NCBI GenBank assembly: GCA_002633005.1 | Contig: NMRA01000137.1 | Span: 682,001 to 746,000 of the forward strand | Direction of reading: 5' to 3' | Source of the DNA: Phoronis australis | Lineage: Eukaryota > Animalia > Phoronida | Length of the DNA: 64,000 bases | Shown: positions 14,196 through 59,508 of the stretch, one piece after another | How the letters are laid out: each line of letters begins with the position of its first letter | Position numbering within the stretch: position 1 is the first letter of the stretch | The notes under the pieces: model-generated | The model's input: the letters and a program-made list of their open reading frames with translations, nothing else | The model's database searches: none | What the model was told of the DNA's origin: nothing | Made by a program: the position numbers and the translations under genes

Positions 14196-14226
<31 letters not shown>

Positions 14227-28064: not shown

Positions 28065-29125
28065 TCAACCTTCAAAGTAGTTTTGCCACTTTTGTAATGA
28101 AGAGTCTTTCTTGGTCTTCCACTCATTAGCACTGATAGCAATCTGCTCAAATATTCGTAAGTTAGCAAGGCAACAGGCACCGATGTACGCCGCATGGTAT
28201 CTATACGGATGTGTGTGTACCTGAAATACATTTATGAGCAGTCGCAAGTGAACATCAGAGTAGCAGATCTGGGTCATTATGCAAACAAGGACAGATCCGG
28301 AGGACATCAGTTTATTTGAATTGAGGGAGAGCACTGTTGCCTTAGGTGAATGTTTTGTTATCTGACCATTCATTTCCTCATTTTTCTTCTTGTTACATGT
28401 CACATGAGTGCTATACTTCAGAAGGATCATAAGAATATCACGGTGAAAATAATTGTGAAGATATTCGGAAAACAACCTTTCAAAAATTTCAAATGAAACC
28501 GCATATACACATCGGCTTATTTTTGGAAAGGATATTGTATTTTCAGAAACTGTGTCAAAAAGTTATGACACATTTTAAAGCACATGTTCTTTTCAATGGA
28601 TGTAGTTTATCTCACTACTAAGAATGTTATTCGTACAGACTTTTTTCGCCTTTAACAAACAGCACATTAAAACTGTGCTTCACACTGTGCTAATGTGGTT
28701 ATTTACCAACAAAGTCTAACAATATCATGTTAAATCATAGTCATGTTAGCATAACCACAATTCCCAAAATATAAAATCTTGCCAAAGTAAATTAAATTTT
28801 ACATCAAAACATATCACATACGTATTTTAGAACAATCCATCGTTACAGTTTCTGAAAATAAGCCCATGGGCGTACGTTTTTGGACATTTTTACTGAAAAT
28901 ACGCCTATGGGCGTACTTTGGGTGGGCCTGTTTTCCAGTAGACATGAAGAATGGTTTGATGCTGTTTGCAATGCTTAACTAAGCTGAATGTGTTAGTATT
29001 GCGGTATTCGTTTGGGTCCTGGGCAGTGTACTTCCTTATAATGGGGAGGGGGCTGCTGTCAGACATGAAACCCAGAGAAAAAGACTCTTACAGAGAAGAC
29101 TGCGCGAGCGCGCATGTGTGTGTGT

Positions 29126-29164
<39 letters not shown>

Positions 29165-32100
29165 CATACCGTTCTTTGTCTCACCTGTATGACTAGAGAC
29201 GAGGGCACTAAAGCCTTCAAATCATTATTAAGCCTCTCAGCGAATCCCTTGGTCATGGTGACGCCTCCACTCAAAAAGATGCTTCTATACAACATGCGGC
29301 GTGTGTCCATGGGGCACGCATTGGCAGCGTGGATCACCAATTTAGCCAGGCCCGGGTCATCCACACCCCAGACAGCCTTGTTGAACAGACCCTCCGGGCT
29401 TTTGAACCGGCCTGTGCTTACTGTCAGAGTCCTTAAATAAATAACTATAACAATTACAGTAACTTCACATAGGTAAAGCAGCTGACAAAACAACATGTAA
29501 TTAAACTATTTTATACAAGGTAAAACACCAAGAAATTTTGAGAAGACACAGAAACTAGGTGAAGTTGCATGTCATAGCAACAGTAACACAACAGTACCAT
29601 TTTCTAGGCATACACTCAAATATAACGCTTCTAGTGGTTTCTGGGCTTAACAATAAATATTGTACATTGCATTTTTTTCGTAATAAAGATTTAAAACAGA
29701 TAGACGTGTGACCCAATTTCCCCTTTTGTTAGTAATTTTACAAAAAATATCATAAGTGAACGTCTCCGACTAAACCAACAAATCACAAACAAAGACAGTC
29801 AACTCACTGCGGTCCCTTGAGAGGTACGTCATATTTACGCACATCCACTTTCTTATCACATCCGCTGGTATCCGAGAAAAACTTTGATACCTCCGTATCA
29901 TAGTTGGCTGACACGTAATTAGCCTGCAGACAAAGCGGTTGGTCAGTTTTCATATTGTGATGCCATGTGATGATGAAACAAAATGAATGTGTGAAGCATT
30001 TGATAAATTTTCAGCCTAGTCGAAGATGAAATGATTTGCAACTGAACTGAAGCAGCTTCCACTCCATCCACCTACTCAATGATGGTGAATATTCAACCAC
30101 ACTTCAATTCTAACATGTTGAATATTCACTCGGAGCATATAACCCACACTTGCTGAATATTCACGTTAGGTACATTACTCCTTTGACTGAATATTCACAG
30201 TAAAAACTATGTTGAATATTCATGGAGTCCAAAATTGTAATCAAGTATTTCTTCAAAGCACATTTCTGCTTGACTGGAAATTTATTAAAACCAAATTCAC
30301 TGCCATGATGAATATTCAAAATCAAAAACTGGAAAACAAACGACGAGCAAAAAATAACCTCATGTACACGTAATACGACTATGTATCGCACATCAACAAG
30401 GTTTGAATGAACAAAAGCAGACGCATCATATTCTCCATGACACATCTCAAATCTAGTATTCACCAATATAACAAACAGCACGAACACTCCACTCACCTTC
30501 TCCATACAGTAGCGGATGATGAGTTTGTCGATGTCTGAAAACAGCCTGTATTGCACCAGAGTGGCATTGAGCGTCTCCAGTACCCTCTGGCCCCCATACG
30601 CCTGTTTTGATACTCCCGCTTGCACGACGTAACCTAAACAAATGATTCCTTGTCAGTTTTAGTGTCTGAACGTGACAATAGATGCAGCTAAACCCAATAC
30701 AGCGAAGCGACATTAAAATTTTTTTTGCTTGGCATGGACGTCACATTACTTTACATGGGGAATCTACTAATTGCTTTTGCGGCTAAATACAGCTTGATGT
30801 TTAGCAAACACTTGGTTTGTGTGAAAGCCCTACGCAGCTTCATCTTTAATATCATTATTTTTGTTTGGGGTGGAAACCTCTGTTTTTTGAATAAGCAATG
30901 TTCCCCATAACACATAAAACAATGGACCAAACAGAGTTCACCCATTATTACAATTTGGAAGACACAGACGCTAACTCGATTTATTCCAATTTGAAATTTG
31001 CGATTTCGACTTTACTGACTTGACCTACTTAATCCTGTGAATATTTTATTAACAGAAGATTAGATTCATGGCTATCTCATTGAAGCGTGATTCGCTGAGC
31101 AAGCAAAACATATAACACGCAACTAGCATGTTCTTGACGTAAGAGACTGATCTGTCACAGCAGCAAATGTTCTCTTCGCGGCTTATTTTCAACTCGCCGT
31201 TTACGCGAAATGCTTAACTCTCCTCCAGCCTCACCGTCAGTGACAGGAAGGACCTCTAGCCTCTCTCCCACATCTATGACGATCCCCGAGGTAGCGTTGT
31301 ACGAGTACAGTGCCAACATTGCTTGCGGTACCATACTGACGCCCAGGCAACTCATCTCCTCGATCAACAGCTTCATCAGCTGTGCCTTGATGCGGATACT
31401 GAACTTCTGCGGTGTACTCAAAATTACCTGCGTGAACAAAGTTGACGCGCATTAAATTTTAAGCCGCTTCACTGTTTTCACAGACCAAGAGTGTGTTCCC
31501 TTACGCTAATTTCTGGTGAAAAAAACTTAAGCAAGATCATTCTAGCTCACCACCTTAGTTTTGGGCGAATCAGCTGACACCCATATTAGCAAAGACTAGT
31601 AAAATACAAAATTAATATACAAGCAAACAGATGCAAGCCCATATCAAAGCTGATTTTTTGAACATTCACAAGTCAACAAGTTGTCATTTCTCATCAACAG
31701 CACTAGACCTATATTAATACCAGACTTGTCCTGCATTGGCGGAGGTCACAGCATCAATTTAATGACTGCAGGAGTCGGAATTGTCCAGCAAATAAGGGAA
31801 GAACCAATTCACAATGCATGCCACAATCATCTCCATTTTGCTGAAATAGAAGCCGAGCCTAGATGGCATATTATAATGGCCTAACTGGAAATCCTTGGTG
31901 ACTCAGAAAGCGACATGATCCCAATCTAATGATAATAATTAAAAAGTGACTTAGGCACATCTTGGTGTTTTGGTGGATATTTGATCTGGAGCGCTGGTTA
32001 TTCATTTTTGCCAACCACGCATCATTTGCACTAGGCAGGACTTTCTCATATTCCAATTTAGCGACCTGGAAATTTTGCCTAGTCGCATTTGGCAAGATGA

Positions 32101-34839
32101 CACTGTGCTGAGCCTTGACCCCAGGACCAGATGAAACACACAGCTGGCAGTACTTACCCAGTGCGAGGAGGCACTGACACCCAGATCTTTGAATATTTTC
32201 TTGAACAGACTTGGCATGCTAGACAAATCTATGTTGAACTGGAACGATACAATACACATGTAGACGTAGTGCAAAATACACGGTGCAGGTGTCCTAGCCT
32301 GTATTTTTAACATTAGTTCTGCTGTACTGTGTAATGGGAGACCTTATGTTCAACAGGTGGCGCTAATGAATAAAAGCTCGCAAGGGAACATCAGTGGGCT
32401 AGTGGGAGTACAATGTGACTACTGGAATGTATACACCAACACAACCTTGTAAATTTAAATCGGGCCATTGGCTCATTGATCCCTCGATCCCTGGTGACAT
32501 CTATTGAAAATCTGACTAATGAGCACTGCATACAGCACTTCTAGTGTGCAAATTGTTCACCAAATTCTCTCCCGTCAACGATTACTGATAACACTATGAG
32601 CTGTTTACTGTCACCATTTAAACCCAGTTGTCCCACCTACATTACATCATCGCGATCATACAACAGGGAGAAGCAAACATTCTTACACGTAGACAAAATA
32701 CCATAGGAAGACAAATTCAGAAATCTTGGTCAAATATGGTCACTTTCAAATAATTTTAATTCTGAGGATACACGTAACAAAAAACCATCAAAAGCAAATA
32801 CAAATCTTAGACTGAATAACAAAACACAACAAAACAAAACACGCTGAAGTCAGTTCCTTACCACAATTTCTTTTTTTCTCTACGACAAAACGATAAAGAA
32901 AATTACAAAAAACACAATCTAGTAAAATGCAAAGGAAACGCCCCCCCCCTCAGAAAACACTGAGTAAAATGACAGTGTCACAGTCACACGAATAAACAAA
33001 GACAGTCCATGGAGTAGTTCTACTTACTGGGTCACTGAATGGCTGATGGCATGATAACAAACATTGGATAAGAACATGTTATATCAAATTGAAAATTCAT
33101 ATTTCAAATGTCCATCCATAAATGCAAAAGCATACTTCCAGTATTTCTGGTCCTGTTTCACTGCAACAGCACGCTAAACCATTGGATGTTGGAGTTTTCC
33201 TGCAGTAAAACAATCTAGCTCTGGCTGAATTACTGGCTAGACTGCCAACAGGAGTCCAAATAAACGTGATCAATGTTTCAGTGCAGCAGTACTCAACTTC
33301 AATTACACCACACATGATAGAACTTAACAACAGAGACTGGAAAGTATTACAATCCAAACAGAAACAGTGAAAAACAAAATAAACAAATTATTGGCAAGTT
33401 TCTTCACCACTATGTCTCCTCTTGGCACATTATTTTCGGCTATAATGAACAATGGCTTGTGAGAATCGGTAGATCCCCAAGATGGACTCGTTGGAAAGAC
33501 TGGCACACCGAGGCACTGACTGTGACAAATCAAACACTGGCAACTAGTGACTAAAACCAGGAACTAGAGATACAACAGGTTTATCTGTAGGTGAGAACCA
33601 TGTCGATAATACAATATATATAATAATAATAATATATACAACATATACAACTGTTAAAAGAGCTTCAAACGGAATTAGTTGATCTGAACATCGCTTATAT
33701 ATGTCACGGTACCCTTTATCTTGCAATCTTCTACCAAATCGCATTGCTAAAAATCTCCTTAACATCCATCCTATACCTTTTCTACTGTGATGGTGGGCAT
33801 TATTGGACGGGAGAGCGTGTACTTTTTCCGTGTTGCTGGCTTGAATGCCTCGAAGCCCCAGATATGCGTTGACCCAGGGGAAGGCGACTTCCCTTTTTTA
33901 GTCTTCTCTGTTGCCACGACTGCAGGGAAAAACAGCGTAGGCAAAGATGCTGAAAAACAGAATTTCCATTTTCACTGGTATTGAAAACCACTTCAAACCT
34001 GCATGGCATGGCTTAGGTCATGAATAACGAGCTTTCATCGGCGACCACGTGTGAATTGTTTGCTGTGCCCATTGAAGGAATACATCGTTTCTAATGATTT
34101 GTGTAATTACCAAAACATTAGAAACTCATGGCACTTAGTACTTCGTTAATATGCTTGTATAATTACCGCTGTCACCAAGAGGTTTCTTAATCAGGGTACC
34201 TGATCTAAGGTCTTATTATATGGAGTAGACCAATAACACAGTAGCAATGGCTTCACCACAATTAAACACGGGCTAAAATAAATTGATATATCGTGGACTG
34301 AAACTGGCTATCTGAAACTGAATTCTTCTTTAAGCTAAATTAGGAGCATGTTTACATGAAGAAATACAATAAAAATCAGCCAAAACAAACGTGTTGGGTT
34401 TTGATTCTCTGGAAGACATTTTTGAATGGTTTCAGTGACTCTTTGAACTGTGGTAGATAATTGGCTTATGAGATGTGATGCTGAACAAAAGTGCACAAAA
34501 ATGCTTAACTGCGGACTACATTGATATCTAGATTAGCTTTGATTTAGAAACCGCTCATCATTTTGAGTAGAAACTGCGTGGAAGGTTTTGGTCATGTTAT
34601 GGACAAGTAACGATGTTCATGAAATGCTAACATATCAAGACAGACACCAGCTGAAAGGCTGCGTAGGCTTACTGCGCATCTGTTCATTCCTTAAAGTGAG
34701 TGGGACGGTAAGCCCTTAGTAGGACATTAGCATGAACAGTCATAATCAGTAATTTTTTTGAAAATTGTTCATACTTACGTTGAGCTCCTAGGATGCCAGC
34801 TCTTATCGACGTGCTGCCAAGATCTACGACTACAACTTT
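28065..34839 (-). CDS. Actin-fold (actin-related protein) domain, 8 exons
   Basis: Phosphate-1 VVVVDLGSTSIRAG (actin DNGSGMCKAG); VILSTPQ...PQAMLALYSYNATSGIVIDVGERLEVLPVTDGY (actin [34 protein letters not shown]); RFKSPEGLF; CPMDTRRMLYRSIFLSGGVTMTKGFAERL (actin CDIDIRKDLYANxVLSGGTTMYPGIADRM); C-terminal PYRYHAAYIGACCLANLRIFEQIAISANEW (actin [30 protein letters not shown]). Confidence 0.93.
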
Positions 34840-37800
34840 CTGCAATGAAAATAAAGGTCAAAATCTTTAAAACAGCAATTACTCGGAAATTATAAACTAG
34901 TGTTAATGTAATAATGTTAACATCAATTGCCAAGCTGTAGTCCATCCGTCTCTAATGGACTTCAGCTTGGCAATTGATTTTATTATTATTATTCTGGCTA
35001 ATAGGTGACGTTTTAGCCAGAATAACTAATTTTAGTAAGTTTTACTTCCAGTATTAGATTCAAATTTCATATAATTTCTCAACTAGATGTCTCAAATGCG
35101 CCATGCTTCTATACTGATTTACTGACTTAAGGGAAGGGCATCTTTCTTCATGACAGAATTTTCATAGTTTTATGCAATGATGGCTCATTTCCTGATAAAA
35201 ATTGCTCGTTTCACAACCGAAATTTTAGAAATTCATTAATAGGCGTTATCAACAGAAACAGGACTCCTGGACAAGAAATTACATCGAGCAAACACATAAA
35301 AAATCTACACAACTGGATGATGTTTTAGGCATAGGAGAGACTCCCTATGAAATATGACACCCTGTTTTACTCTCTACATAGTTCAAATAGCAAAAATGTG
35401 TCGTAATTTTTCCTAGTAAGCGGTTTTTAAAAATGTACCTAACATCTTACTCTGAGGTAAAAATGTTTTGCTTATTTTAAGTTGCTGGAAATCAATCGCT
35501 GTTGTTTGCCTTTACACTGAACACCTTCCATAACTAAACAAATTGGAAAGATATTGTCAAGTTAACTTGAAAACTATATTCAATAAATCTGCTTTCTTTT
35601 CAAACTTCTAATCAGATGAAATAAACAAACATAATCATACTCATTGCCACAGTCAAGAAATGTCCCCATCCCTTTATACCGACCTTGCTGGGGTGTTTTG
35701 GGGCCTGCAACATAGGCTGAATGTAGGTTGCCTCAGGAAAGTCATAGGTCTGCGTCGTTAGTGACAGCTGCCAGTCACGATATTCCTCGTCCGTCTTAAT
35801 ACGTAGCATCATGTAATGACCTCTCTGGAGCAGAAATGGTATTTAGTAGATTGTTCAGCACTTCACCCCAGGATCAGGAGTTATTTATAATCTGAGTAGG
35901 CAACAAGATATTAACAAATGTCCCAAATCGCTGAGAATAGGAACAATAACAATAACAGGAGTAATAATAATAACAATAATAAAAATAACAACAACAACAA
36001 CAACAAGAATAGTATTAGTAAAAACAACAATAATAATAGGAAAGTAATAGTAAAAACTCAAGTGAGTGACATGGCTTTCGCACTCAGCTCATTAATGAAA
36101 AACCCAAAATAGAAATGTTTTTGAATTGGATTTTTTGTAGAAAAAGTATTCAGTTTGGGTAATTACTGTTAAGTTATTCCAGGTGCGATTCCCATCACCT
36201 TTTTTGTCATAACTTTCGCAATCAGGTGACAACAATGTGACTTCTTTAAAAACATTTCAGAACTGGCTGTGTCACTCAAGATACGAAGTGTGACTGAGAG
36301 TGTGAGATACTGACCAGACTACAAAGGTGACATGAACCCCAATCTCACTGGTGATACTTACGCCATCATTAATTCCAATCATTCTGTTTCCCAACTTATC
36401 TATATTGGCACCCATCAGCTGGAAGAAACCAGCGGCTTTGTCCACTTTGACGTCCTGAAATTAAAAGTAAACAGAATTTTAAATAAATAAGTAATTTTAA
36501 ATCAATTATCTACTTAATTAATTTGATTTCAAACAAATCGATTTCAAACTCTTGAAAATATATGTATTCAATGCGTCAAGTAAAACAACACAATGCAAAA
36601 TCAAAAATTTTGATATTTTCAAAAATAATAATTCATGCCGTATCACTTACATGAACATTAAACATACACAAAGTTGAAATATCTTAAATGACCTTATACG
36701 TGAAATGACTGAATAACAAAGTCTTAACATTTGACAAAACTGGGAAAACAATGTCACATTTACCTGCTCAATAAAATTCAACAAAAATAATATTTTATTA
36801 ACAAAATATTTCAGTTATCATAAGCTGCCAAATAATTCTGGCAAAATGTCTGGCAAAGTCTGTCCAGTATATTTTGAATAACTACTGTAACACACAGTAC
36901 ATTGGGTTTCAGGTTCGATGCACCACCTATGGGTCATAAAATGACTTAATACAATAGAATTAGTGATAGATTTCAGTCTCCCACCGTTTCGACTACGGCA
37001 TTTGTTCATACAAAGTTGCAGAAACAGGAAAATACATACAGACTAATTTTTTGTCAAATATGAACAATAAAACAATTAAAGGAGAATGCCACCCAAAAAC
37101 AACCAATTTTGTATCAATTCAGATCGAGTAGTTCTACTCGATAATGGCACATTCGGTTGTGTTACCTGACACCTGACGGTAGACGGAGGTGTTGAAATTA
37201 CCCAATGACGTCATTGGTTTCACACGCAGTCTGTTCAGCAGTTCATAACATGGGTTTCTGATGTCAGCTTATTGCTTGAATTCATCATTTAACACCAATA
37301 AATCATCAAACTTCGACACAAAACCCTTAAAAATACACAGAGTTCTTATAAAAACGTGTTGTTTTATTTCGCTGTTACGGATTTATTCATGGTATTTCGA
37401 CTCACCGTAGCCTACAAAGTTCGGCAGGCCAATTTTTCCAAGGTCCGTAGCAGGAGTTTGGGGTTTGTTCGGAGATAAATTCGAAGTATTCTTCCGTCAA
37501 ATATAGACAGGAGAACCTAGATCTGTGTTGTTTAGAATTGTGATTTCTTGAGCTCTTAACACACAAAACGCTTGTCATCATGGCCAGTGGCTCGGAACCC
37601 GATCAGGCCCGTCGCGGCCGGACTGACTCGTTATCCCGGCCAGTGGCTCGGAACCCGATCAGACCCGTCGTGGCTGCCGGGACTGGCACGAACATAAACC
37701 AGCTTGAGTTGGAAACTAAACCTCCAGTCATGAAAAAACCATAATAGTAAGCCAAAGAAATAATGTGCACGTAATTATTTATGTGAATTAGCCACGAAAC

Positions 37801-40800
37801 TGAAAATCTACTTACTTGTGGGGGGCCGCGAAGTTGGGTTCCCCCTTCCACTGACCGTTACTGCAAAGGTTGTACAGTAACAATGATTTGTATTTGTATT
37901 TCTAAATAAAGATTCTCCTAACATGTGACCATAGCATACAAAATCGTGTAATTGTTTCATAAAAGTGACAGCTTTCTGTCAGCAAACACTGAATTAGCAT
38001 GCGTTCACACGGCCTCGGTGCCCGGTCAATCACCTTTATTGACGGCACCAAAAGCTGGTAACCCAGAGGTTTATTCATTGCTGGCTTCTCAACATTTGCA
38101 CTCACGAATACTGCAAAGGCATTACAAATTGTACCTAATGAGACAGACTTTGTTTCAGTTTTATATAAGCATTGGTTAGGATGAGAATAATTCATTTTGA
38201 AACAGAACGCAGAATAATAAACGTCTTTATGGCAACTCGCCCGGCGCCAATCCCGACTTAGTCAAGAGCTCATCCGACGAAGACTTCACGGGTCGGATCG
38301 TTAGGTTTCACAGGCTATCGAACTGGAATACACCGATCAAGAAATACTAGAGGGGCGCCGTGAAAATGCACAGGCAACGGAACGTATGGATAGTTCTTTG
38401 GTAAGCCGGAATTCGTCAGAGAAATCACTGTCGACGAAATGCCGGCCACAGACACGGACATGTTTCACGGCCTCACATACTTGCTATTAACAGCGTACCT
38501 TTCATTCTTCACTACCACGAGCCACTTCCTGATTTTGGGCTCTCGAGGGGGAAGTCGAAAAAACAATATACCCGCTTTCTTCACAGCTTCATAGTTCGGA
38601 CAAGCGGGAACAATGCACCGCAATGTAGTGGCATTCACTCTGCAGACGAACCACTGACGTCGCTGCGTCATTTCTCACCTTCCTCACAGGTTAACGCGAC
38701 ACCTCTTGGCAAGGTGAGGTCGACCGTATAAGAGGCGATGTTGACATAGACTGATTAAGACGGTAAAAAAGACTAATTAAATCGGGTGGCATTCTCCTTT
38801 AATAACTAACTTATATTTTCACTTCCAAAGCTATTAAAAATGCAACATCACTAGGAAATTTCTTAATTATTAATAGACTTGCAGTCAACCTCTCGACGAT
38901 TTCTTTTGGGCAAAACACTCAAAGAATTAATGTAGTTATGCTGAAGACAGTCCAAAGCGCAAGTTACAGGTAAGAAAGAACAGGCTAAGGAAATTCAAGC
39001 TATCTGCAAACACCAAGCATGAAATTAGACAGAGAAATCACTAACTTAGTATACGAACATCATGCATGCGTTCAGTAACACAAGGACCTACTCTAGAACC
39101 TCGCTAAAATCTAGCCAAAGTCATGTGTTCTCATTTAAAATACACCGCAATATCTCACGTAATCTCGTGAAGTCTTGCTTTTTAGCAAGGTCCTAGCGTT
39201 ACTAAACGGGAAACAGCTTCTACAACGAAAATTAGGGCCAGGGTGCCATTATTTTACTCAAAATTGAACTTGAAGTTACTTTAACAATTTCTGTTCTACT
39301 TTGGTACGAACTCAAGATATGCGTCTATAATTCTGAGCTTGTATTTGTAATGGTTTATGTCCGACGAATGAGTAATCCTATTTTACACTTGACGACCCCC
39401 AACCATGAAGCTGCGTGATTAAGTCAGAATTTGAAATCTCGTGTTTTTACTCGAAATCCCGAGTTTTTACTAGAGTTCGTAGGTTGAATCTAGCAGTCAT
39501 CAAGTGCGAATTTGGACTACACACTCATTTACAAAAACCATAATAAACTCAAGGACAGAATATTAAATAATAATCAAGAGTTCATATTAAAAGAGAATAA
39601 AAAATTTCAAAAAAATTTTCAATTTCTATTTCAAATAAAATGATTAGACCCCGAGCGCAGAAACATTCACAGTGCAAGTTGAGAATGAAACAGTGAAGTC
39701 AGAGATGGAAAGTGTGTGGTAAAAACGCTAGAACAGATTAACACCAGACTCAGGGCAATACAAACCACTGGCTTTCTCTGAAGGTATCAAGAAAATTGTT
39801 ATAAATATCAACAATAATAGTATTTATTTGTAGTAACTGCACTTTATGGAAAGGAACCAGTCACAAAATTATGCTGAAGGACGCAAGAGAATCGGGATGG
39901 AAAATATGAAATGTGACAAAAATTAGAACACAACAGTTCAAAAATGCCTAAGCTGATTCAAATGATTTATGCACTGTACGAAAATTAACCAGAATTTGTT
40001 ATCATAATACTTAGCATACGGGGAAGGCACTGCTAAGATTACAGATTGATGCAAAAATTTTGAATTCATTATTACTCATCTCAAATATTAGACAAAATTA
40101 AAATGATACAAAAATGCAAAACCTGTAATCATAACATTTTTGAAACTTCACCTTGAACTTCTATATTAAATGAAATTTGACAAAGACAATAAAGTACGCT
40201 AAAATCACACCAATTCTGGACAAAAATAATAGCCAAAATCGATCTTTTTCATTTTTCAAAAGTGCTCCAACACTGTCATGAACACCCATCATTTTCTAAA
40301 CCATTGTCTGATGGTAGCTATGGTACAGAAGTTCAAAAAAGGCAAATTAATATTAATTAATATTAAATTAATATTAATTCTGTGCTATTTACCTTTCATG
40401 AAAAAAATGGAAACACATTTTAGTGAAATGAATGTTCAAACACAATGTCTTCTGTCGGCCATATTGTGACCTAAACTGGTGAGACTTTACATATATGCCG
40501 AATGCAGCTTCGAATTTCAGAGTCAGGACACAAAACAAAGATGCGTAACTTACGTCGTAGTAGAACAGTTTCCCCCCGTTTATCCGGAAGTATTTCCTCC
40601 TCCATGTCTTCAACAGTGTGTCCTTGCTCTTCCCTTCTGGCAACATCTCAGCGTACCCTTCCATTGAAAGGTACTTATGTTGCACCTCTTCAGCATTCTG
40701 AGAGTCAAAGTTAAACCAGAGACATTGTCTAAGCACAACATCAATTAAACGTGTATATATATAGCTTAGTACACTGTTCTGGCTATATCGCCGAATTCCA

Positions 40801-43800
40801 TGCATTAAATAGCTGAGAATTTAAAGCGCATTTAGCTGGTAAAGACCTTGCCTTCAGTGAATGTCTGGCAGAAAACGGTAAGAATCTGATCAGTGGTTTG
40901 TAACAACGTTTCAAAAAAACAACATTCTTTACAGCTCCAGTCAAAGCTAAAAACTTCTAAAGTCTAACTCATCCAACGATGATCCCATAATTGAGTTTTT
41001 CCGCGCTAAAAATGATATAGTCTAAATTCCACATTCATACTATAACCGACCGGATTTCTTAAACAGCACTTCATGCTTGCTAAACATCTCAAACTTTTGA
41101 CAGCAGACAAAGCTTATATATTTAATGGAAATAGTAATCCGGACATTGTTAGAATTTAGAGAACTGAAAACCCCACAGTATATTGAGCAGACATCAAAAG
41201 CAAAAGACGCTCAATTAAACTCACGCTGTGGTTAACCAATTTCAGCTCGTACAGCTTCTTCAGTAAACTCTCCTGAAAAAGAAAATTTATGTCAGAATTG
41301 AGGACCGATTCCCAGTCTAAGTTATTAGCTCTTCGAATATGCTTGCACAGTCTAAAAGAACACCAAAACTATACATTTTTCAACATAACATCATTTAAAT
41401 AATAGTAGCAACATAGTATTAACAATAAATGAAGACAAAACATATGAATATCATATAATCCCCTCAGTTTGGGAAACTATTCAGTGTATTCAGAACACTG
41501 GAGTCTCCCTGTTTTGATCCCAAATAACAACAGTATGGGCAATGGGGTTTCTTCTAAACTACCAGACAACAACTTACATCAACTGACTTCATTTTTTACA
41601 AATTCCAAATAATTTCTTTACTATGCATCAAATCCAAAAGCCAACCAAAGACTATTGGTTTCATACACAGGGTGGCAAGTACAGATGGAAACTGCAACAC
41701 TCACAGGGTCCCAGTCCTGTAGCGTGACTTTGTCCGGGACCGTTTCTTCTCCCTTCAAATCCAGCTCCACAGGCCGAATAGGCAGATCTTCAGTAGACAT
41801 CAGGGCAGTGTGACTCACTGCAGGAGATATAGGAATGTTAAAGAGGAAGTTAAACACCACTAGCAAACCTGGGCTGTACATTCATAATATCACTATTGCA
41901 TTGGGACACAGATGACTTTCAGTGGTAGTAATCATTTTGCTTTGATTAACGTATCCATCAATGAGAAATAATTCCAGAACTTAAGTAAAGTGTCAACTTT
42001 TCAATTCTCAATATCTGTACCATGTTTGAATGAACTAGTCGCATTGTAATGCTTCAGACACATAAACTGACTCAGTCAAGTCAATGTATTTAGCTTGTCC
42101 CAAGCACTAACAAACTATCACTTCTATTCAAGCCCAGACATAATTTAACTGAACCAGGAACAATTTAAAATAAACTATATAATATCAAGCAGCCAATCGG
42201 CACAGTGGGAAAATGCATTAAAGTAACATGTACTTCACAATGTTGTTAATTAAATTCATTCAAAATTTAGTTTCCCTCTATCACTCGCTTTCCATCATCC
42301 CACGACCTTTGACACACTGTCAACACAACCTTTGAACCACCATCACAATAACATATCCGTTGACGTTACAGTAAATCAAGGATACCTGAAATGTCCGGAA
42401 GCCAGTTTCTCACCATAGACACCGTGTCAACAGACGGTTTGGGATTGAGTCGGATAGAAGACGTAGAGGCTAAGCCTCTGTGTCCAGCAGAAATCCCCAG
42501 CAGAGCCAATTGTTCCTTAGACATTGTGTCAATGTCTGTAACAAATTCGCATTTTGGTCACTAGAGGGCGAATTTGTCAGTGCAGACAGAAGATGATGCA
42601 CCAATGGGGATTCAAACCAAACACAAATGCCAACACAACACCTCCACTTGAACTGCATTAAATTTCAAAGAAAATTTGATCAGACTACAGTTTTGCAATT
42701 GACAAAACATTTTAGAATGAGGAGAAAAGAAATTTGTAAGGACAATGGTTACTCACTAGATGACGAAATAGAATAAAATTAGAGTTACATGTAGCTTAAA
42801 CAATGACAAGAGATTTTGTTCTTTTACAGAAAAGCTTAAGTGGTGTGCGTTTTGGAACAAAACAAATGTTTCGTTATTCACCAATGAATGTCCTTTCATC
42901 TACCTCAATTTGGAAAAGAAAATCCATTACAGGCAAATAAGATCTGAATTAGTAGCATTTGAAAATTGTTTTGACAAAGAGAAAGACCGGTGACATGGGT
43001 TGAGGCGACAAGTTGTGCCGATCTAATATCAAACATGAAACGGGAACCACAACACCAACTCTAAACAAAAGGAAACTAGAAAAGACATAACAGAACCTTG
43101 AAACACCAAATAACCTCGCATGCGTCGTTTTGGTTTGACAGAAGTTTCCGAAGCCTTCGGACTGACCATCGGATACAGCAAACCCGTTGGCTTCTTCTCA
43201 AGCACTGATGGCTTTTCCATACGATCCATCTTTGAGAAATGGTGACTCGGCACACGTATGGCGTCTTTTCCTTTCCCAAAGGAACCTTCGTGATCCAGCT
43301 GATAAGAGGACGAGTCTTGAATCAGACCGCGGTCCAAGCCGAAGTTATCCTTGTCGCCACTAAAACTGGTCCCCGACATTCCTCGACCAAGCTTGCTACT
43401 GGCACCACCAACAAAATTAGGGCGGTCACTGCCAAGGCCAGCAGGAGTCCCCGCGATGGATGGAGCATCATCATACGAACTCTTTCTCCATTTATTCCAG
43501 GGCATAGTGATACCCTGGCTGAGGTTTCGTAGCTTCCCCATCAATGCCTCGCCCAGGGCACCAAAGTTAACGGAGCCAATATAAATGGATCCAATATGGA
43601 TGTCCTTGCCACCAGCATTACCAGCTCCTCTTCCTGCCGTTTTCCCCCCTCTCCCTCTAACATTTTGTTTTCCCGAAGTATTTGCCGTAGGTGATCCCCG
43701 GCCACGCCCACCTCCCCTACCCGCTGTACCACCACCCTTTCCTCTTCCCCTACTTGAACTAGTACCACTAGCTATACCTTTGGGTGATGTCTGACCACCT

Positions 43801-46038
43801 CTGCCTCTCCCCTTTCCAGCACTGCTCCCTCCCCGTCCTTTATCAATGCTAGTTCCACTACCAGACCCTTCAGATGAACCTTTCCCACCTCTACCCCTAT
43901 CCCTTCCTATACCACCTCCTTTTACACCCCTACCACCTCCTTTTCCATTCCCAGCAGTAGTACCAGTGCCACCTCCTTTGCCAGACCCTTTACTGCCCCT
44001 CCCCCTACCCCTTTTTCCGCTAATAGCTCCTTTCACCAATCCCTTATTGCCCCTTCCCTTACCCCTTTTTCCACGAACACTAGCTCCACTACCAACCTCT
44101 TTGGGTGTCTCTCTACCACCACCGCTAGTTGAAGACCCAGTAGATGCAAGTGAAGATGAACTCACGCCAGTTCCACTGCTGCCAACACTAGATGCACTAG
44201 GTGTTCCAGTACCCTTCCCAGATGATCTACTCCCACTACCTTTACTTCCTGTAGTTGGTGTGCTACTGACACTTGACAGGCCTGAGCTAAAACTGACCGA
44301 TTTCTTCGCACCCACACTTCTGACAGACTTCTTCCCTTCTACCATAAAGTCCTGCCCTTGTTTTCTCGTGTCCAGGAAATCTGCAGGTTCCAAATCAACA
44401 CGATCTTCCCCAACTTCTTCAGGCTCTTTCATCTTCACTTTCTCTTGCTTGTTTACAGGGATTTGTTGCTTCTTCTCTCTGGAAACACGTTTATGTCCAG
44501 CAACGGGACTAGTTCCACTTTTCCTCTGTCCAGATGAGAGGTTAGTATCTGGCTTTTCATTGTCAACTCGCTTCTTTTTTTTAGGCCTATCTCCACCAGT
44601 TACACCTTTCTTACTTGCCAAACTGGTTTCACTGCCTGCTTTATCTGGAGCTTTTCCTGGAGTCTTACGAGCCTTAGCTTTCTTTTCTATTGGACTACGT
44701 CCACTGCGATCCTTCCCATGTTCTTTCCCTCTCTTGCCCTCCTCAACCTCACTTCCACTGCTATCGCTATCTTCATCTCCCGTTTTGTCATCTTTAACTG
44801 TTCCTGTACCTTTGCCCCTACGTCCTCCCTTTTTACCCCGTAAGCTGGAAATATCAGTTTCATCTTCATCATCACTCTCTCCTCCTGCATCCGTTCCTCT
44901 ACTGCCCCTGCCAGAACCTTTTTGTCTTCTTCTACCAGCACGTCCTGTAGACCCCACACTGGTTCTGCTGCCAACACCTCTACCCCTATTTCTCCCACTG
45001 CCTCGTTTCGCAACTGAGCCTCTTTCTGCCTTAGGGCTACCTCTGCCTTGTCCTCTTCCAACACCTCTATCCCTACTTCGTCTCCCACCCATACCTCTTA
45101 CACTACCCCTACTTCTTCCACTGCCTCGTTGCGAAACTGAGCCTTCTTTCGTCTTTGGGGTACCTCTGCCTTTTACCCTTCCAACACCTCCTTCACTCTT
45201 TTGTCTACCTAATCGGACACTATCCTCACTATCAACTTCATCAAGACCTTTGTCACTTACGCTCTTTTTTGGACCTCTTCCTCCTCTGCCCTTCCCTCTA
45301 ACACCTTTTCCACTTTCCTGCTTACCTTCTTCATCATCTCCCACACTGTATGAAGTTGAAGATTTTGTTTGTCCAGAACTATCAACAGTTAGGTTTATAT
45401 TAACATTAATTGGTGGCATGTCCTTAGCTTTGTTTTTCTTTTTCTTGTCATCATCACTACTTGAACTACTGCTGCTACTACTGCCACCCTTATTCTTTGG
45501 AGGGTTCGCCCAATTCCAATCATAACCAGAATTGGCCATGTCACTTACGTCTTCAAAAGATGGCCCTTCTTCACCAAAACCCCAATCATCAAACTCTTCA
45601 TCATAAAAACCTCCTTTCGAATCAGGACCTCCTCTTCTCATTCTTCCACGAGACCTCCCTCTCCGAACACCATTTCTTCCCCTCCCTTCACCTCTTCTCC
45701 CCGCTCGATCTTTTCCCCTAAGTCTGGTAGCGCCACTAGTAGAACCTCCTCTTCTACCTCTTCCTCTGCCTCCACGAGATCCTCGTACACTAGGGCTCTT
45801 AGTTTCATCAAAGTCATCATAACTGACATCACTTGAGTCTTCCTTTGAAGAACGTCCTTTTCTGCGCTCCTTGGATTTCGTTCTACCTCCAGGTTCTTCA
45901 GAATCCTCATCGTCTTCATCATCTGTCCACCTCGATGGACCTCCTTTTCCACCCCTGCCTCTCCTTATACCCAAATCGCGACCTCTGCCATGACGTCTAC
46001 CACGAGACCTACTTCGCTTGGGTCCCATAGGCATTCCC

Positions 46039-46084
<46 letters not shown>

Positions 46085-49000
46085 TGTAATAATCATCTTC
46101 ATCATAATACATTTTTGAGTGACTTCCCTTCCCTCCACGATTCCCTCTCCTATTTCTCAATCTACCCCGAGATCTCTTACCTTTCGGACTTTCATTGTAG
46201 TCATTAAAATAATCACTTTCATCATCCCAACCTTCATCCCAACCCCTATTCCTACCACGATCCTTTGCCCTCAATTTACTCCTGGACCTACGTGGCCTTC
46301 TTCCTCTTCCAGCCCTCCTCCCACCTTTCCCTATGTCCTCATCACTATCTCCATCTGAACTGATGACTTCCACTGATTCAGACAATATCTCAAAATCATC
46401 ACCAAGGCCTGGAGGTTTCTTCCCCTTTTTCTTCTTCTTCCCCCCCACAGTAACATCAGTTGACTCGAAAAGAACCTCATAGCCCTTAGGAAGACCCTTA
46501 GGTTTTTTGTTGTAATTTGTATTGAGCTCACTTTTGTTCAGACATCCACCATCCACAGAGTCTGGTAACGATGCATCACTTCCAAGTTGACCACCAGCTG
46601 GTTCAGCATCTCTCTTGGCAAGTTCAATAGTCGGCATGACAGCAACGGGAAAGTCATCAGAAAATTTACCAAAACCAGTTTCAAGTCTGTTCATGTCGAC
46701 TGTTTCTTCAGTGAGGAAAGATTGTGGACCACCCACCTCAGCCTGGGCAAGAATAGATGGTCTAGTCCTTGATTTGCCCCTTGTGTTACCGCATGTTTTC
46801 TTCTCATTCTTGCTTTGATCTACCACTATCAGCTCGTTGAGAAGAGTGACACTTTCCTCCTCAGCAAGTGCTTTCTCTTGCACAGATAAAGAGTTGGCAC
46901 CAGATGGAGCCACTTTATCTTGCACTAGCACATTATTATTTCTCCTGGTACAATGAGAGTCACTATTTTCCTTCACTTTTACGTCGCTACCCTGTTTAAA
47001 AATGGGCACGGCAGAACTACTTTTCTTAACATTGATGTCAACAGTTTTAGACGTAGGATTATTTTCAGGTTTGCTCAGCATCGCCAGTGCATACGGAGTT
47101 AACACATTTTCTTTTTCTATAACAAATTCTTCTGGAGGTGGCCTTGACATTATCTGACTCTTGGATACTGATGATGCCTGTGAAGAATGGCTGTTAATTT
47201 CAGTCTGTGTTTCTGAGACGCCATTACATCCATGATTATCTGTTGCTGGTGAGGCAGCCATGGACTGCTTGGATTTGGAATTTTGCTGAAACAAAGTATG
47301 AATCAAGATGAAACAGCAGAGCAAATAATCAATGACTTTGACTCAACCAAAGTCACTACTCAACTTTTGAACATTTTATCAACAAGTGCGAGATTATTCA
47401 GTAAATAAAATTGAGAGCGGTTTCTGCGATTGTCCACGCTGAACCCCATGTTGTGTGCCACTTGTACAGCCTTAAAGTCCACTTGACTAAAATACTTCAA
47501 GTTTTGATCCACCTGATTAAAACACTTTATGCTCTGTTTTATTAGTAAAGCCAGAAAACCCACCTGATTAAAACACTTCATGCTCCGTTTTATTAGTGAA
47601 GCCAGAAAACCCACCTGATTAAAACACTTCATGCTGTTTTATTAGTAAAGCCAGAAAACTAACCTGATTAAAACACTTCATGTTTCGTTTCATTAGCATA
47701 GCCAGCTTGTTCTGGACCTTGACCAGTTCATGAGACACCTCCACGTAAGCAGCCGAACTATGGTCAGTGATCTCACCAATCTCTTCCGTCAGAAGGTTGA
47801 ACTTCTCCTGCTCCGACTTCATCTCTTTCTGTAGGTTTGACACTGTCTCAATTAACTCCTGAAGACAGAGAACGACAATGACACTATTAAGGAGACATTG
47901 GCTGCTCTGGTATTCAGTGTTCCTCGCATCAGAAATTCAAACTTGAGTTACAAAATTCTTGTTCAGGTTTGGAATTCCACGTCCTTACTGTGGAGAGCTT
48001 GTGTGCATTGAACTGGCATCTAAACTCCAAAATGGACGAATTTGCTTAGAAATAACTAATCCTCCAATACTTCAAACTCATTGAATAGGTTTTTAAATTT
48101 GGTGGAAATAAGCCAAACTCGTCGCAACAAAATTCAAAGTTGAAGCAGTGACGAGTCAAAACAGGTTGTGGAGAACACTGTTAGCAAACATTCCACGCAG
48201 CACGCTCTTTGTATGTGTAGATTGGAATTCTTGTACAGTCTGCTCTTCGGGTCTGAAATGTCTTGGATTAAAACGATAGCACGATTTTATAGAGTGGCAT
48301 CCATTTGTTACTGATTGGAACCTATTTTACTTATAGTGGGGTACATTAGCATTTGCTATTTTACATTGTTGTTCAAGTGACCCCCTGGAGTTTTACATTT
48401 CACTTCTGCAAGAGGATTCCCCACTGTAAAATGAAATAACACATCATGAAACGTTCAAGGTATGTTTCATAACTCATTGTAATGAAAAAGTTGATGGTTA
48501 CAGAACACAGAACAGTATCAGTAAAGGGCACATTCTTCTAATCACTCACAACACTGTGACCTTTGTATGCAAAGACTGGCATAGCTGGAGACATCATGAC
48601 CAGACATAGGAGAAAGACAATCTTTAATGCGATACACAAAACAAATATTATAATGGATAAACAAACTTGTTGACTTGGTCATTACTGAGTGACCAGTCCA
48701 CAGAGACAGCTGAACCAGCCCGTGCATTTAGAAGAGTGTAGACTAGTAGCTACAAGCTGAGCTGTCATACTCAAGTGAATTATAGCTCAGCTCACAGCTC
48801 AATGCAGGTGCTCAATAAACTACTACAGCCATTTATATTAAACAGTGTTAATGTAGTGCACAGCAAGAAAGATTAGCTGCTGTCAGGTAGGGCAATGATT
48901 GTTTTTCACAAGCTTCTGAAGGTAATTGGCTAAGCACTTAGTTCACTTAACCTGCATGCTATGAAGATTTGCGCACACCAGGTAAAAGAAAACCACCAAG

Positions 49001-49358
49001 AGAGACATCTGCTTTACCGTCTTGCGAGGTAAAATCCTTACAGTTCATTTTGCCGAGACAGTAAGCCATGAATTGAGCCAACCTTCATTTGAGACAAATA
49101 GTTCTTCACGTGCGCTTCTCTTCACAGTATGATTGAGATGGCTGTCAGGAATAATGTAATTGGAAAAATTAAGAGACTGTCTATTTATGGAAGGCATTGC
49201 TAGTCAGATGTCCCCTCTAGCTGGCTTTCGTCATAATTTTTGTTCAACTGTCTACCGGCTTCACCCACCTTCATCTTCATACCGTTGATAGCTTTATCAA
49301 AATCACTCTCCGAACACCTCAACAGAGGCGCAAACTCAGGGTCCACTGAGGTGCCCAT
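28065..49358 (-). CDS. Giant PH-domain / actin-related protein, ~2102 aa (coiled coil - low-complexity IDR - PH - actin fold). Coding exons: 49358-49269, 47858-47664, 47285-43115, 42535-42386, 41817-41705, 41272-41225, 40697-40554, 36454-36362, 35824-35684, 34839-34779, 33949-33777, 32238-32158, 31427-31235, 30633-30497, 29923-29808, 29431-29185, 28220-28065
   Basis: Every listed exon has AG/GT boundaries with matching phases; total 6309 nt including TGA. ATG sits in strong context GCCATGG, and the upstream exon has stops in all three frames. The PH and actin exons are secure; the junction to the giant exon (donor GAG|gttatt at 43115) is less certain. Confidence 0.78.
29115..29161. repeat. 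(TG)n microsatellite in the last intron of the PH-actin gene
   Basis: Directly visible. Confidence 0.95.
35684..40697 (-). CDS. PH domain, 3 exons (40697-40554, 36454-36362, 35824-35684)
   Basis: MEGYAEMLPEGKSKDTLLKTWRRKYFRINGGKLFYYD|DVKVDKAAGFFQLMGANI...|RGHYMMLRIKTDEEYRDWQLSL: beta1 EGY, beta2 WRRxYF, beta3 LFYY and C-terminal helix with the invariant Trp. Confidence 0.88.
35942..36038. repeat. Imperfect (AAC/AAT)n microsatellite
   Basis: Directly visible; intronic. Confidence 0.85.
37080..38798 (-). mobile_element. Kolobok-type DNA transposon (non-autonomous or decayed) with frameshifted THAP domain
   Basis: TTAA TSDs (37076-37079, 38799-38802) and perfect 15-bp TIR AGGAGAATGCCACCC. On -: RCIVPACPN...FFRLP...KW / frameshift / HVRVCGRHFVDSDF = THAP C2CH signature (~38620-38420). 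Internal ~56-bp tandem duplication at 37582-37690. Confidence 0.85.
39062..39215. mobile_element. MITE family B copy 1
   Basis: ~150 bp with CGTTCAGTA..AGGACCT termini; reverse complement of 51112-51266. Confidence 0.7.
43115..47285 (-). CDS. 4171-nt giant exon encoding ~1390-aa low-complexity disordered region (RG/RGG, Gly/Ser, Lys-rich and poly-Asp blocks)
   Basis: Uninterrupted ORF 47324-43029; acceptor tttcag|CAA (phase 0) and donor CGAG|gttatt (phase 1) match the phases of the flanking exons. Confidence 0.8.
47480..47700 (-). repeat. ~51-bp tandem repeat x4 duplicating an exon end plus its splice donor
   Basis: Unit CTAAT(A/G)AAAC..CATGAAGTGTTTTAATCAG|GT(G/T)(G/A)GTTTTCTGGCTT; exon-end positions at 47664, 47615, 47564 and 47513. 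Confidence 0.9.
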
Positions 49359-50587: not shown

Positions 50588-50669
50588 CTGTGCCTACGTC
50601 ACCTTATCTCTGATTCACTGCGTCTTCAATGCTATCTGCGATTCTACTTCCTCATAAAACGATAATGCA
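50588..50669 (-). other. Putative non-coding 5'UTR exon of the PH-actin gene
   Basis: tttcag| acceptor and CAG|gtaagt donor; stops in all three frames. Confidence 0.6.
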
Positions 50670-51111: not shown

Positions 51112-51266
51112 GGCCTCCTGTTCAGTAACGTTAGGACCTCGCTAAAACGCAAGACTTTGCGAGATTACGTGAGATATTGCCGTGTATTTTAAATGAGAAC
51201 ACGTGACTTTGACTAGGTTTTAGCTAGGTCCTAGCGTAGGTCCTAGCGACTACTGAACGCACGCCA
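51112..51266. mobile_element. MITE family B copy 2
   Basis: GGCCTCCTGTTCAGTAACGTTAGGACCT...AGGTCCTAGCGACTACTGAACGCACGCC; internal part is the reverse complement of 39062-39215. Confidence 0.7.
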
Positions 51267-57032: not shown

Positions 57033-57455
57033 AGTCCCGATTACACTTCAAAAGTTGACACGGATCAGCTGACACGGAACAAGTTGTTCCAGTGTGTAAA
57101 CGGACTGACACGGAGCAAATTGACACCGCGGTGACAAAATTTTGCCACCCGTTTGTGAGGTAGAGCAATTTGCGACCAAACAACTTGTTCCAAGTCAATT
57201 ATATGTCTAAACGCGAAAGTTTGGCAAGGCGGAAAGGATCATCTCTACTGCGCTTGCCTAATGACCTATATATGGGTTCTTTGTCTCTGCAACTCTTGTC
57301 ATTTGTAAACATGCGCATGTGCGATCCAGTCTTTCCAGCCTTTAATTTCCGTCTTGCCACGGTTAGTGAGTTGTGTGTGTAAACGGCCGCTTGACACAGG
57401 TCAATTTGCTCCGTGTCAGTTGCACCTGGCCAAAAGTTGATGTCTAAACGGGACT
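57033..57455. mobile_element. MITE family A copy 2 (inverted relative to copy 1)
   Basis: TIR AGTCCCGATTACAC / GTCTAAACGGGACT; ORF-track peptides 7198-7410(-) and 57170-57382(+) are near identical because of this repeat. Confidence 0.75.
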
Positions 57456-59508
57456 TAGGTCAACTTTTAAACAACCAATTTTCACTTCCCTTGCTCATAG
57501 TATTCCTGCCCTAGGAGTCTGGCCCTTGTCTAAGACACAGACAGGGTGAACTGCTACTTGTGCTTAAGGACATGTCATGTTACCAGCTGCCATGGATGAC
57601 ATGTCAACATTGATTGATTGATCATAACCAGATAACAGGTTTAGCATAAAAAATGTCAAACCTTATTAATTCTGATATTCATTCAGCTATGGTCTTACAC
57701 ACAAAGGCACAGAAAGGCAAACAGGTCATCTGTGCTCAGAAACACTTTATGTCTCAGGACACAAGATTTGGTGTTAAATTTCACCTCATTTATGTTTCAA
57801 CCTTTATTATAGAGTACTTACCGGTACTATGGGCTCAGATGTTTAGTCTATCTGAGCTATGGGCTATGAATTAAAAAAAACTTTAGAATCCCAAGCAGAT
57901 GGAATGGTGTTTTTTACTGCACAAAGGTGCTGATCAGAGTCAGCGGTTGATTCAGAATTTCAAAAATCGGACATCCAAAATTCGCGTTTCCCAGTTTCTT
58001 AGGGATAAAGTGCAAAAAAGTTTATTACAACCCCAAATCAAATTGCGATATAGTTTGGTGCCTACTACTGGGCAGACGTGGTTCAGCAGTCGCACATCCT
58101 TTTTCTAAAACCAACATTTTATTCTGGACAGGCCAATGAGCTCCCAGAGCTGCTGTTAACAAGTTAAAACATACCCGTGCTTATGTGCCTTTTACATCCT
58201 CACATTTGTAATGACCAAATAAAAAGTAGAAAATTACAACTTTGACTATTATTTTTCACCAAATTATGTCAAAAAATACACTTTAAATCTCACCAATTTC
58301 AGGAAAAATATTGCTAACCTTGTTTGTTTTTCATTTTTCACGGGATGCTTCCACTGAAGTGAATGTCCCAAGGTTTCTGAAAACGTCCCACGGTAGCTAC
58401 GGTGTAGAATTTGCAACTGATAAAGCTTATGTTTTGAAGAACTTCTCTTTAACGAAAAAATTTTCAAGGACAAAAATAATTGCCTAAAATGCCCTTTTAT
58501 CATTCAGCAACTGGGCTTCTAACAGTATTGTGGATGTTTGTAATTTTTCAAAAAATTGTCTGATGGTAGGCTGTGGTACAAAACTAGAACATGGAAAGCC
58601 ATGAAACTTGAATATATTTTATGAAAAAAACATAAAATAAATTTCACTTGTCGGCAATATATTGCGTCCTCAATTGGTTATATTTTAATGTATAATCAAC
58701 TGATATTTGCTGATGATCTTGTGATTTTCCCTTCAACCATAAAATTCCCGTCACAGGTGAGTGAGGGGTTGTACTCAAGACACCAAGTGAAGAGCACAGC
58801 TCACACTAAATCCTGACCTAGCAAAGTTGTCATTTATTATAGAGAATGGATGATAATTACCATGGCAACATAAAAAGACACTGAAACCAAAACACGTTTT
58901 TCCTGTTCTGCAGCCTTGATAAGTATTTATCTAAAGCTGACGTCACAACATAATTACATTGTGAGAAGAAACACACAGAGGTGAGGCTGCGCCATACAGT
59001 ACCAAAGGAGAATTAATAAATTATAAAAATCTAGTCTCTCTTCTTCTCAGCAGGCAGAACTCTCTAAGTAGGAACTATGATATTAACGCTAGAGTGACAA
59101 AATTCAACTTTTGATAAAGACAACTTTGGCTGCCACAAAGCAGTAGGGTGATCTTTCAGTTTCGGAAAAATCCTCTGTTGATTAGTGATAACATAAAAAA
59201 CACAAACATTCAATCAAGAAATGGACACCCGAGAATAACCACGTTGAAACACCAATCACACAAGAGCGATGACTTATTGACATAAATATGCAAAATCATT
59301 TCTAAGGTCAACTGAGTTTACGACAAGTTTTATACTGCCAACTGCCTAGTCTATTTTCAGACTACCTTGACACAAAAAGCTTCCCCTTTAAAAATATTAA
59401 AATCACACGAAACTCCCTCAACTGGCCAAAAAATCCCCAGCTCAAGGTTTGGCTCACTTGTAACTCAAACAGGCCATGATTCAAAACAGCACAAAATGTT
59501 TTGGCTAC

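Follow-up and report, generated by a model that had tools for sequence, protein, structure and literature searches.

A PH-actin gene of Phoronis australis: its family, its remodelled actin fold, and a proposed role at the membrane

Canonical actin-related proteins (Arps) are stand-alone actin folds. Their class tables comprise Arp1 to Arp11 and lineage-restricted orphans (PMC2441452, PMC7038667). Proteins in which a PH domain precedes an actin fold have been noted before, and their family is annotated but undescribed in the literature searched. One such protein is encoded by a predicted 17-exon gene on the minus strand of a 64,000-nucleotide stretch of the Phoronis australis genome (assembly GCA_002633005.1, contig NMRA01000137.1, positions 682,001 to 746,000; hereafter the window), which combines an N-terminal helical hairpin, a variable disordered spacer, a conserved helix with the motif WDPxxLLxxLY (WDP helix), a PH domain, and an actin fold. 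It is proposed here with moderate confidence that the gene belongs to an ancient PH-actin family as the orthologue of Caenorhabditis elegans F42C5.9, and that its product is likely a membrane-tethered, ATP-binding, and poorly hydrolysing mimic of actin that does not form ordinary filaments.

F42C5.9 (UniProt Q20329, assigned by cluster look-up) has 552 amino acids and lacks both the spacer and the N-terminal hairpin. In C. elegans muscle, a fusion to green fluorescent protein (F42C5.9::GFP) is found at the cell membrane and in filament-like and dense-body-like structures, and a phenotype upon RNA interference (RNAi) is flagged (PMC3096668). Under the label ‘Actin-like PH domain’, the gene has been reported as a weak modifier of neuroblast migration in a sensitised mab-5 gain-of-function background (RNAi 80% versus 92%; PMC3651406). 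The protein increases after pore-forming Cry5B, together with Arp2/3, ERM-1, and DBN-1 (drebrin) (PMC9704757), and is a ‘foundling’ hit of an antifungal RNAi screen (PMC4850687). It has also been binned as nematode-specific, with the RNAi classes sterility, lethality, and growth and an IntAct pair with NHL-1, and took first rank in a list of drug-target pairs against nematodes (PMC3083401). A description of the family as such was not found in the literature searched, outside of which lay subscription papers and most supplements, and the term ‘PH domain’ is absent from a recent review of actin evolution (PMC12050087). The gene called actl-1 acts in the IL-17 pathway and is unrelated to this family.

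Membership in an ancient PH-actin family

The gene runs from an ATG at position 49358 to a TGA at 28065 and comprises 6,309 nt of coding sequence for 2,102 amino acids (rebuilt from three-frame translations and checked by script). In an independent rebuild, all 16 introns are bounded by GT..AG and phase-compatible, and the only stop codon is the final one, which bears out the coordinates, the exon count, and the length of about 2,102 amino acids given in the initial annotation; the gene model is real and intact. The predicted protein consists of an N-terminal domain (amino acids 1–98), a low-complexity spacer (about 96–1560), the conserved helix (1570–1585), the PH domain (about 1598–1695), and the actin fold (1716–2102). 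When scanned one by one (16 exons; exon 6 is too short to scan), exons 13 (E 2.4e-5), 16 (E 2.5e-15), and 17 (E 7.5e-4) match Pfam Actin, and exon 7 matches Pfam PH weakly (E 0.009, short of the curated cut-off). Twelve of the 16, including exon 15, match neither family at E 0.1, as is expected for such short pieces. Relatives whose PH domains do pass Pfam PH share 30–50% identity with the window in this domain.

A word-based homologue search with exon 16 yielded no match among 90 candidates, but a full HMMER search recovered long proteins with this actin fold at their C-terminus, most of which also match the PH domain and several the N-terminal domain of the window. The 285 proteins scanned (284 fetched records, including isoforms and near-copies, plus the window model) contain 211 near-complete actin domains, and 187 of these carry a PH domain. 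The WDP helix is present in 172 of the 187 PH-actin records and the N-terminal domain in 53. Unannotated homologues, whose existence had been surmised, are indeed present under names such as ‘PH domain-containing protein’, ‘actin-2-like’, and ‘uncharacterized’; with at least 187 PH-actin records recovered, the assumed rarity of the fusion is not supported.

In a tree of 107 of the 211 actin domains (isoforms and close relatives were left out), 89 family rows, 86 of them with a detected PH domain, form one side of a branch with 100/100 support. The other side consists of 17 actin-like matches without PH domain; because the tree does not include canonical Arp4/5/6/8, Arp1–11, or animal actins, it provides evidence for the coherence of the family, not for its sister group. 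The branching within the family roughly tracks animal phylogeny, and the window falls into a lophotrochozoan set of 17 rows (95/90) within a protostome set of 52 (100/99). Its actin domain is most similar to those of Owenia and Lingula (49% identity each), followed by F42C5.9 (34%) and Salpingoeca (33%), and is 26–28% identical to three actin-like proteins of the outgroup. The window also has the signature motifs of the family (the WDP helix, PxxR, D[IV]G[DE][RH], WGxD, and RYH) and shares its intron positions. Judged by these characters and by the position of its PH domain immediately ahead of the C-terminal actin fold, the gene is a member of the F42C5.9-type PH-actin family. This agrees with the initial reading of a non-classical Arp to which a PH domain is directly fused.

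Named members occur in annelids, nemerteans, brachiopods, molluscs, priapulids, nematodes, chelicerates, myriapods, crustaceans, mayflies, odonates, hemichordates, echinoderms, cnidarians, and two choanoflagellates. A word-limited search gave 116 rows, 85 of them with a species name; neither chordates nor holometabolous insects occur among these 85 or in the clusters looked up, and a profile search aimed at chordates and other insects returned six proteins, all of them already known, among 7,993 scored. Absence from these two groups is only a lead.

The PH domain and the actin fold meet between exon 9 (35684..35824; amino acids 1669–1715), which encodes the last PH strand, the PH helix, and the linker to actin, and exon 10 (34779..34839; 1716–1735), which encodes the actin phosphate-1 loop. 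This junction is gap-free in all seven aligned relatives, as are junctions 5/6, 7/8, 8/9, 10/11, and 12/13 to 16/17. Junction 11/12 is gap-free in five of the seven and junction 6/7 in none (a one-residue gap lies beside it); junction 4/5 is crossed by one relative and 3/4 by none, so that homology support is absent for the latter two. In 43 metagenome loci, the breaks in tblastn alignments coincide with the intron positions of the window, and the ends of exon 13 are identical in all 13 loci checked. One locus (L033) has an exact equivalent of exon 2 located 5′ of its PH exons, and another (L024) has a 507-codon frame that runs into the WDP motif. Single uninterrupted frames on 11 of the 43 loci span PH domain and actin fold (L001–L006, L010–L012, and L015) or the actin fold only (L013), and both domains also lie in one frame on short Logan contigs that barely exceed the length of the protein (1,881 nt for 529 amino acids). 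The junctions in the relatives and the shared intron positions indicate that exons 1–2 and 5–17 constitute one conserved gene. The intronless PH-actin frames include one of 1,609 codons (L003, 679–5505) and one of 1,013 codons on a 114-kb contig (L015, 4537–7575), and an unnamed branch of 17 rows in the tree may have lost its introns.

It is possible, although rather unlikely, that the gene is real but that shorter isoforms, starting internally at PH-actin or carrying a trimmed spacer, dominate over the 2,102-residue chain; exons 1–3 may also end at an in-frame stop past the donor of exon 3. Such a scenario is consistent with the lack of homology support at junctions 3/4 and 4/5, with the N-terminal domain in only 53 of 187 records, and with the varying isoform lengths of relatives (Lineus, 759/796/1197; Centruroides, 614–930; a Strongyloides cluster, 714/970/2103; Caenorhabditis, 552/1806). 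However, skipping of exon 3 would leave exon 2 (phase 0) out of phase with exons 4 and 5 (both phase 1), and relatives also have a long spacer in this place (at least 1,000 amino acids in 20 of 99 upstream regions, and the 507-codon frame of L024). A long and variable spacer exon at the position of exon 3 is therefore normal for the family, whereas exon 4 and the precise 3′ boundary of exon 3 are predictions. A dominance of shorter isoforms would alter the spacer and leave the PH-actin fusion untouched.

Remodelled actin fold and proposed function

Most residues of the nucleotide pocket are conserved within the family. Among the 89 rows (88 for the D-loop), the pocket retains D/E11 (88), G13 (88), R/K18 (88), Q137 (88), D/N154 (86), G156 (89), D/E157 (82), R210 (85), E214 (85), and G301 (89). 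In the window, Gln137 is encoded by exon 13 (31235..31427; amino acids 1821–1884), the equivalents of Arg210 and Glu214 together with the W-loop by exon 14 (30497..30633; 1885–1930), and the adenosine loop by exon 16 (29185..29431; 1969–2051). By contrast, the phosphate-2 loop, which also lies in exon 13, is changed: Gly158 is replaced by Arg or His in 84 of the 89 rows, and the loop is one residue shorter in all of them. An equivalent of His161 is present in none; 72 rows have Asp or Glu in its place. Because flipping of His161 in actin sets up hydrolysis and positions the attacking water (PMC10062479), hydrolysis in the family is likely to be slow.

A second change concerns the contacts between subunits. 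The D-loop region comprises 13–15 residues in 81 of 88 rows and is thus 7–9 residues shorter than that of actin (22 residues). The window deviates from this range with a loop of 22 residues in exon 11 (33777..33949; amino acids 1736–1793; subdomain 2), which is rich in Lys, Gly, Ser, and Pro, lacks the hydrophobic residues of the actin loop, and is a member-specific insertion that is no bar to membership. The pocket that receives the D-loop is retained (L142, 79 of 89; Y143, 75; T148, 63; I/V165, 82; D/E167, 78; Y/F169, 76; D288, 86; R290, 87), and so is the plug with the family motif WGxD (W, 88; G, 82; D/E, 89), which is encoded by exon 16; K61 is lost in the family. The contact between D-loop and W-loop is a major long-pitch bond in actin (10.1101/309534), and a subunit that accepts but does not donate this contact would act as a pointed-end cap or seed, or as a monomer that binds ligands in its groove. 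The remainder of the fold is encoded by exon 12 (32158..32238; 1794–1820), exon 15 (29808..29923; 1931–1968; subdomain 4), and the coding part of exon 17 (28065..28220; 2052–2102 and stop).

The AlphaFold model of a relative from Lineus (P0027) has a mean predicted local distance difference test score (pLDDT) of 84.9 and a predicted template modelling score (pTM) of 0.73 over 759 residues, 102 of which are disordered; by rough arithmetic only, this pTM suggests that the PH domain and the actin fold are placed as one rigid unit. The best match of its actin fold is conventional actin (Z 43.6, root-mean-square deviation 1.5, 343 aligned residues, 28% identity), with lower identities (17–24%) to solved Arp chains, whose Arp identity is presumed here wherever the title of the entry is silent. 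Exon 16 alone finds ‘HC1 actin’ as its best PDB match, but the whole domain ranks this protein among ordinary actins, so a special link is not proposed.

The PH domain is encoded by exon 7 (40554..40697; amino acids 1590–1637; strands 1–3), exon 8 (36362..36454; 1638–1668; middle part), and exon 9. PH domains with high affinity for phosphoinositides carry the motif K-Xn-(K/R)-X-R in strands 1–2. This basic motif (K..[KR]xR) is complete in 54 of 86 PH domains of the family, and F42C5.9::GFP is present at the cell membrane (PMC3096668), which renders the membrane targeting put forward in the initial annotation plausible for the family; for the window itself, the argument is weakened by a degenerate motif (M, R, K; Met for Lys and Lys for Arg). 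The motif is also degenerate in all named nematode rows. Specific binding of phosphoinositides by the PH domain of the window is thus less probable, and its attachment to the membrane may be weak or mediated by proteins. Exon 5 (41705..41817; 1536–1573) ends in the conserved WDP motif, after which locus L024 also has an intron, and the 48-nt exon 6 (41225..41272; 1574–1589) completes the WDP helix upstream of the PH domain.

In the mechanism proposed here, the WDP helix, the PH domain, and the actin fold would form one rigid head, which the PH domain would hold at the inner face of the membrane. The conserved groove at the barbed end would accommodate either a conventional actin subunit, through its D-loop, or a partner that binds in the groove, and the shortened D-loop would block further growth. 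The head might then cap or seed the pointed ends of filaments, or dock regulators of actin, at sites where the cytoskeleton is attached to the membrane, with the spacer as an adjustable tether to a binding partner of the N-terminal hairpin. Four members of the choanoflagellate clade (P0062, P0168, P0038, and P0073) carry a SAM domain before PH-actin, and the near-identical P0062 and P0168 also EH and PX domains. By analogy, this set resembles domains of endocytosis and membrane traffic, which counts in favour of a role at the membrane.

Several observations weigh against this proposal. Residues were numbered via a sequence alignment and not by superposition of structures, the model that was folded is that of the Lineus relative and not of the window's protein, and the lipid motif of the window is degenerate. 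Many of the conserved residues have a structural role in every actin fold and hence are no proof of a binding surface, and D286 is kept in only 4 of the 89 rows. The localization in the worm was obtained by over-expression of a protein tagged with GFP at its C-terminus, which the authors themselves name as a caveat, and the filament-like structures seen with this fusion are compatible with self-assembly (PMC3096668), as is the retention of R62 (86 of 89) and D/E244 (52 of 89).

These observations lead to the alternative that the head builds a non-canonical, membrane-bound filament of its own or co-polymerizes with actin. In place of the D-loop, it would employ family-specific surfaces such as the WGxD plug and the PxxR helix in subdomain 2. 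This alternative would be in agreement with the almost invariant R62, D288, R290, and plug residues, with the filament-like structures in worm muscle (PMC3096668), and with the many prokaryotic actin-like proteins that polymerize through other contacts (PMC12050087). Nevertheless, it is considered unlikely because the D-loop is short in 81 of 88 rows, His161 is missing, and both K61 and D286 are lost; moreover, a PH domain packed onto every subunit would be expected to constrain the helix.

Beyond the single gene, it can tentatively be suggested that the family represents an overlooked, conserved class of Arps that predates animals, was retained in lineages as far apart as choanoflagellates, worms, molluscs, and sea urchins, and seems to have disappeared from chordates and most insects. 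Its members would act as self-anchored cortical caps or seeds, or as filaments of their own, without a multi-subunit complex.

Hairpin, spacer, and surroundings of the gene

The N-terminal domain is encoded by the coding part of exon 1 (49269..49358; amino acids 1–30; first two helices), where relatives begin at the same place, and by exon 2 (47664..47858; 31–95), which has the same AG/GT ends on locus L033. Models, which for the fold of exon 2 are those of relatives, predict a confident helical hairpin (pLDDT 89.4) with antiparallel helices. The ‘coiled coil’ of the initial annotation is better described as a conserved helical hairpin domain of about 95 amino acids. Foldseek found no match to this domain at E 0.001, Pfam only weak ones to ZapB/Ada3, and in structure comparisons the best Z of 9.8, with many tied helical hairpins (PDZD8, ESCRT-III, HR1, EHBP1), lies under the level that is meaningful for helices; the modelled hairpin is thus without specific structural relative. 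A likely non-coding 5′ exon at 50588–50669 (minus strand; AG..GTAAGT; stops in all three frames, by eye) lies upstream of the acceptor at 49364. At 47509–47705, 3.9 copies of a 51-bp unit duplicate the end of exon 2, including its splice donor, into intron 2; since the first step is 49 bp, read-through shifts the frame and runs into stops.

The spacer is encoded largely by exon 3 (43115..47285; amino acids 96–1485), a 4,171-nt low-complexity exon rich in Gly, Ser, Arg, Lys, and Asp, to which no homologous sequence was found and whose 3′ end is uncertain because the frame runs on to a stop near 43030. It remains open for 1,390 codons, compared with a maximum of 359 in 200 base shuffles, and contains 11 RGG motifs, a long Asp run, and tracts rich in Gly, Arg, Lys, and Ser. 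Exon 4 (42386..42535; 1486–1535) completes the spacer and is the weakest-supported exon, with matching splice sites and phase but no homologue found. A frame of 576 codons rich in Pro and Leu on the plus strand (43795–45522), which has no match in Pfam, was rejected as the antisense shadow of exon 3 and is probably a by-product of its Gly/Arg/Lys codon use.

The initial annotation had interpreted the spacer as a region that binds RNA or forms condensates, which would turn the protein into an adaptor between membrane, RNA, and cytoskeleton. The 64 RG and 11 RGG motifs upstream of the PH domain, with a net charge of +75 over amino acids 761–1340, are indeed as dense as is typical of an RGG box. 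NHL domains often bind RNA. In line with such a role, IntAct lists F42C5.9 with the TRIM-NHL protein NHL-1 (PMC3083401). However, the window alone has such a high RG content (4.1 per 100 amino acids, followed by 0.98 in the next of 98 relatives, with a median of 0.16); the spacers of relatives consist of Ser, Thr, Lys, Glu, and Pro, are of any length, or are absent, as in the C. elegans protein. Exon 3 also has a low third-position GC content (0.33 versus 0.58–0.61) and contains repeats, as would an exon that evolves rapidly. RNA binding or condensate formation is therefore not supported as a property of the family, and the adaptor is improbable as an explanation of the gene; because the RG-rich spacer is peculiar to the window among the 99 upstream regions, any role in RNA binding would probably be local to its lineage. 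Finally, the possibility that the prediction has fused two adjacent genes, one with the PH and one with the actin exons, is effectively refuted by the relatives, whose sequences cross the junction without gap (seven of seven) and unite both domains in single frames on metagenome loci and short Logan contigs.

The 4.1-kb intron 7 harbours a 1.7-kb element (37075–38803) with perfect 20-nt inverted ends that resembles a non-autonomous DNA transposon. A candidate exon near 37400 was dropped because it lies within this element and is not needed for a complete PH domain. Dispersed repeats form an inverted pair of 129 nt with 89% identity (39083–39211 and 51116–51244), and the list of open reading frames contains a second, similar pair (7070–7416 and 57164–57459). 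A convergent neighbour on the plus strand (about 7863–22613) has a PDZ exon (Pfam E 4.4e-8) and a last exon of 491 codons with a PDZ-binding-type tail; we take it to resemble PDZRN3/4.

Comparison with known systems

The Phoronis gene adds a further orthologue to a protein that is annotated but uncharacterised, and the interest lies in its family. The tree shows the family to be as old as the common ancestor of choanoflagellates and animals, although F42C5.9 has been treated as nematode-specific (PMC3083401), and its catalytic and polymerization loops are consistently remodelled. If the head is indeed a self-anchoring cap or seed of filaments, it would represent a new way of linking actin to membranes, which is testable in C. 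elegans. F42C5.9 and its database orthologues share with the window the head of WDP helix, PH domain, and actin fold, the same remodelled loops, and the same branch of the tree; the window differs from F42C5.9 in its additional N-terminal hairpin and RG-rich spacer, whose sequence would be specific to its lineage, and in its Lys/Gly/Ser/Pro-rich loop of 22 residues.

Conventional actin and Arp1 provide the closest solved fold and have the nucleotide pocket, Gln137, and the length of the W-loop in common with the family. However, the family is only 23–28% identical to them, lacks His161, has Arg or His instead of Gly158 and a short D-loop, and is fused to a PH domain. Arp2/Arp3 and Arp11 are pointed-end templates or caps. 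The PH-actin head possibly works like these proteins, including the Arp11 of dynactin, by offering the barbed face of an actin fold that ends or starts a filament; unlike the head, they lack a PH domain and are stand-alone subunits within large complexes, and identities to their solved chains are 20–24%.

In filactin of Dictyostelium, as in the PH-actin family, the actin domain ends a long protein, but it is highly similar to conventional actin (PMC2441452), whereas the actin fold of the family is about 27% identical and has a PH domain as its partner. Orphan Arps such as Drosophila Arp53D and those of mammalian testis resemble the family in falling outside the Arp1–10 classes but are lineage-restricted (PMC7038667), whereas the PH-actin family spans choanoflagellates to bilaterians. 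In a protein of Diphylleia rotans (P0145), three PH domains precede the actin fold; its long branch lies outside that of the family, which suggests that PH and actin were probably fused independently a second time.

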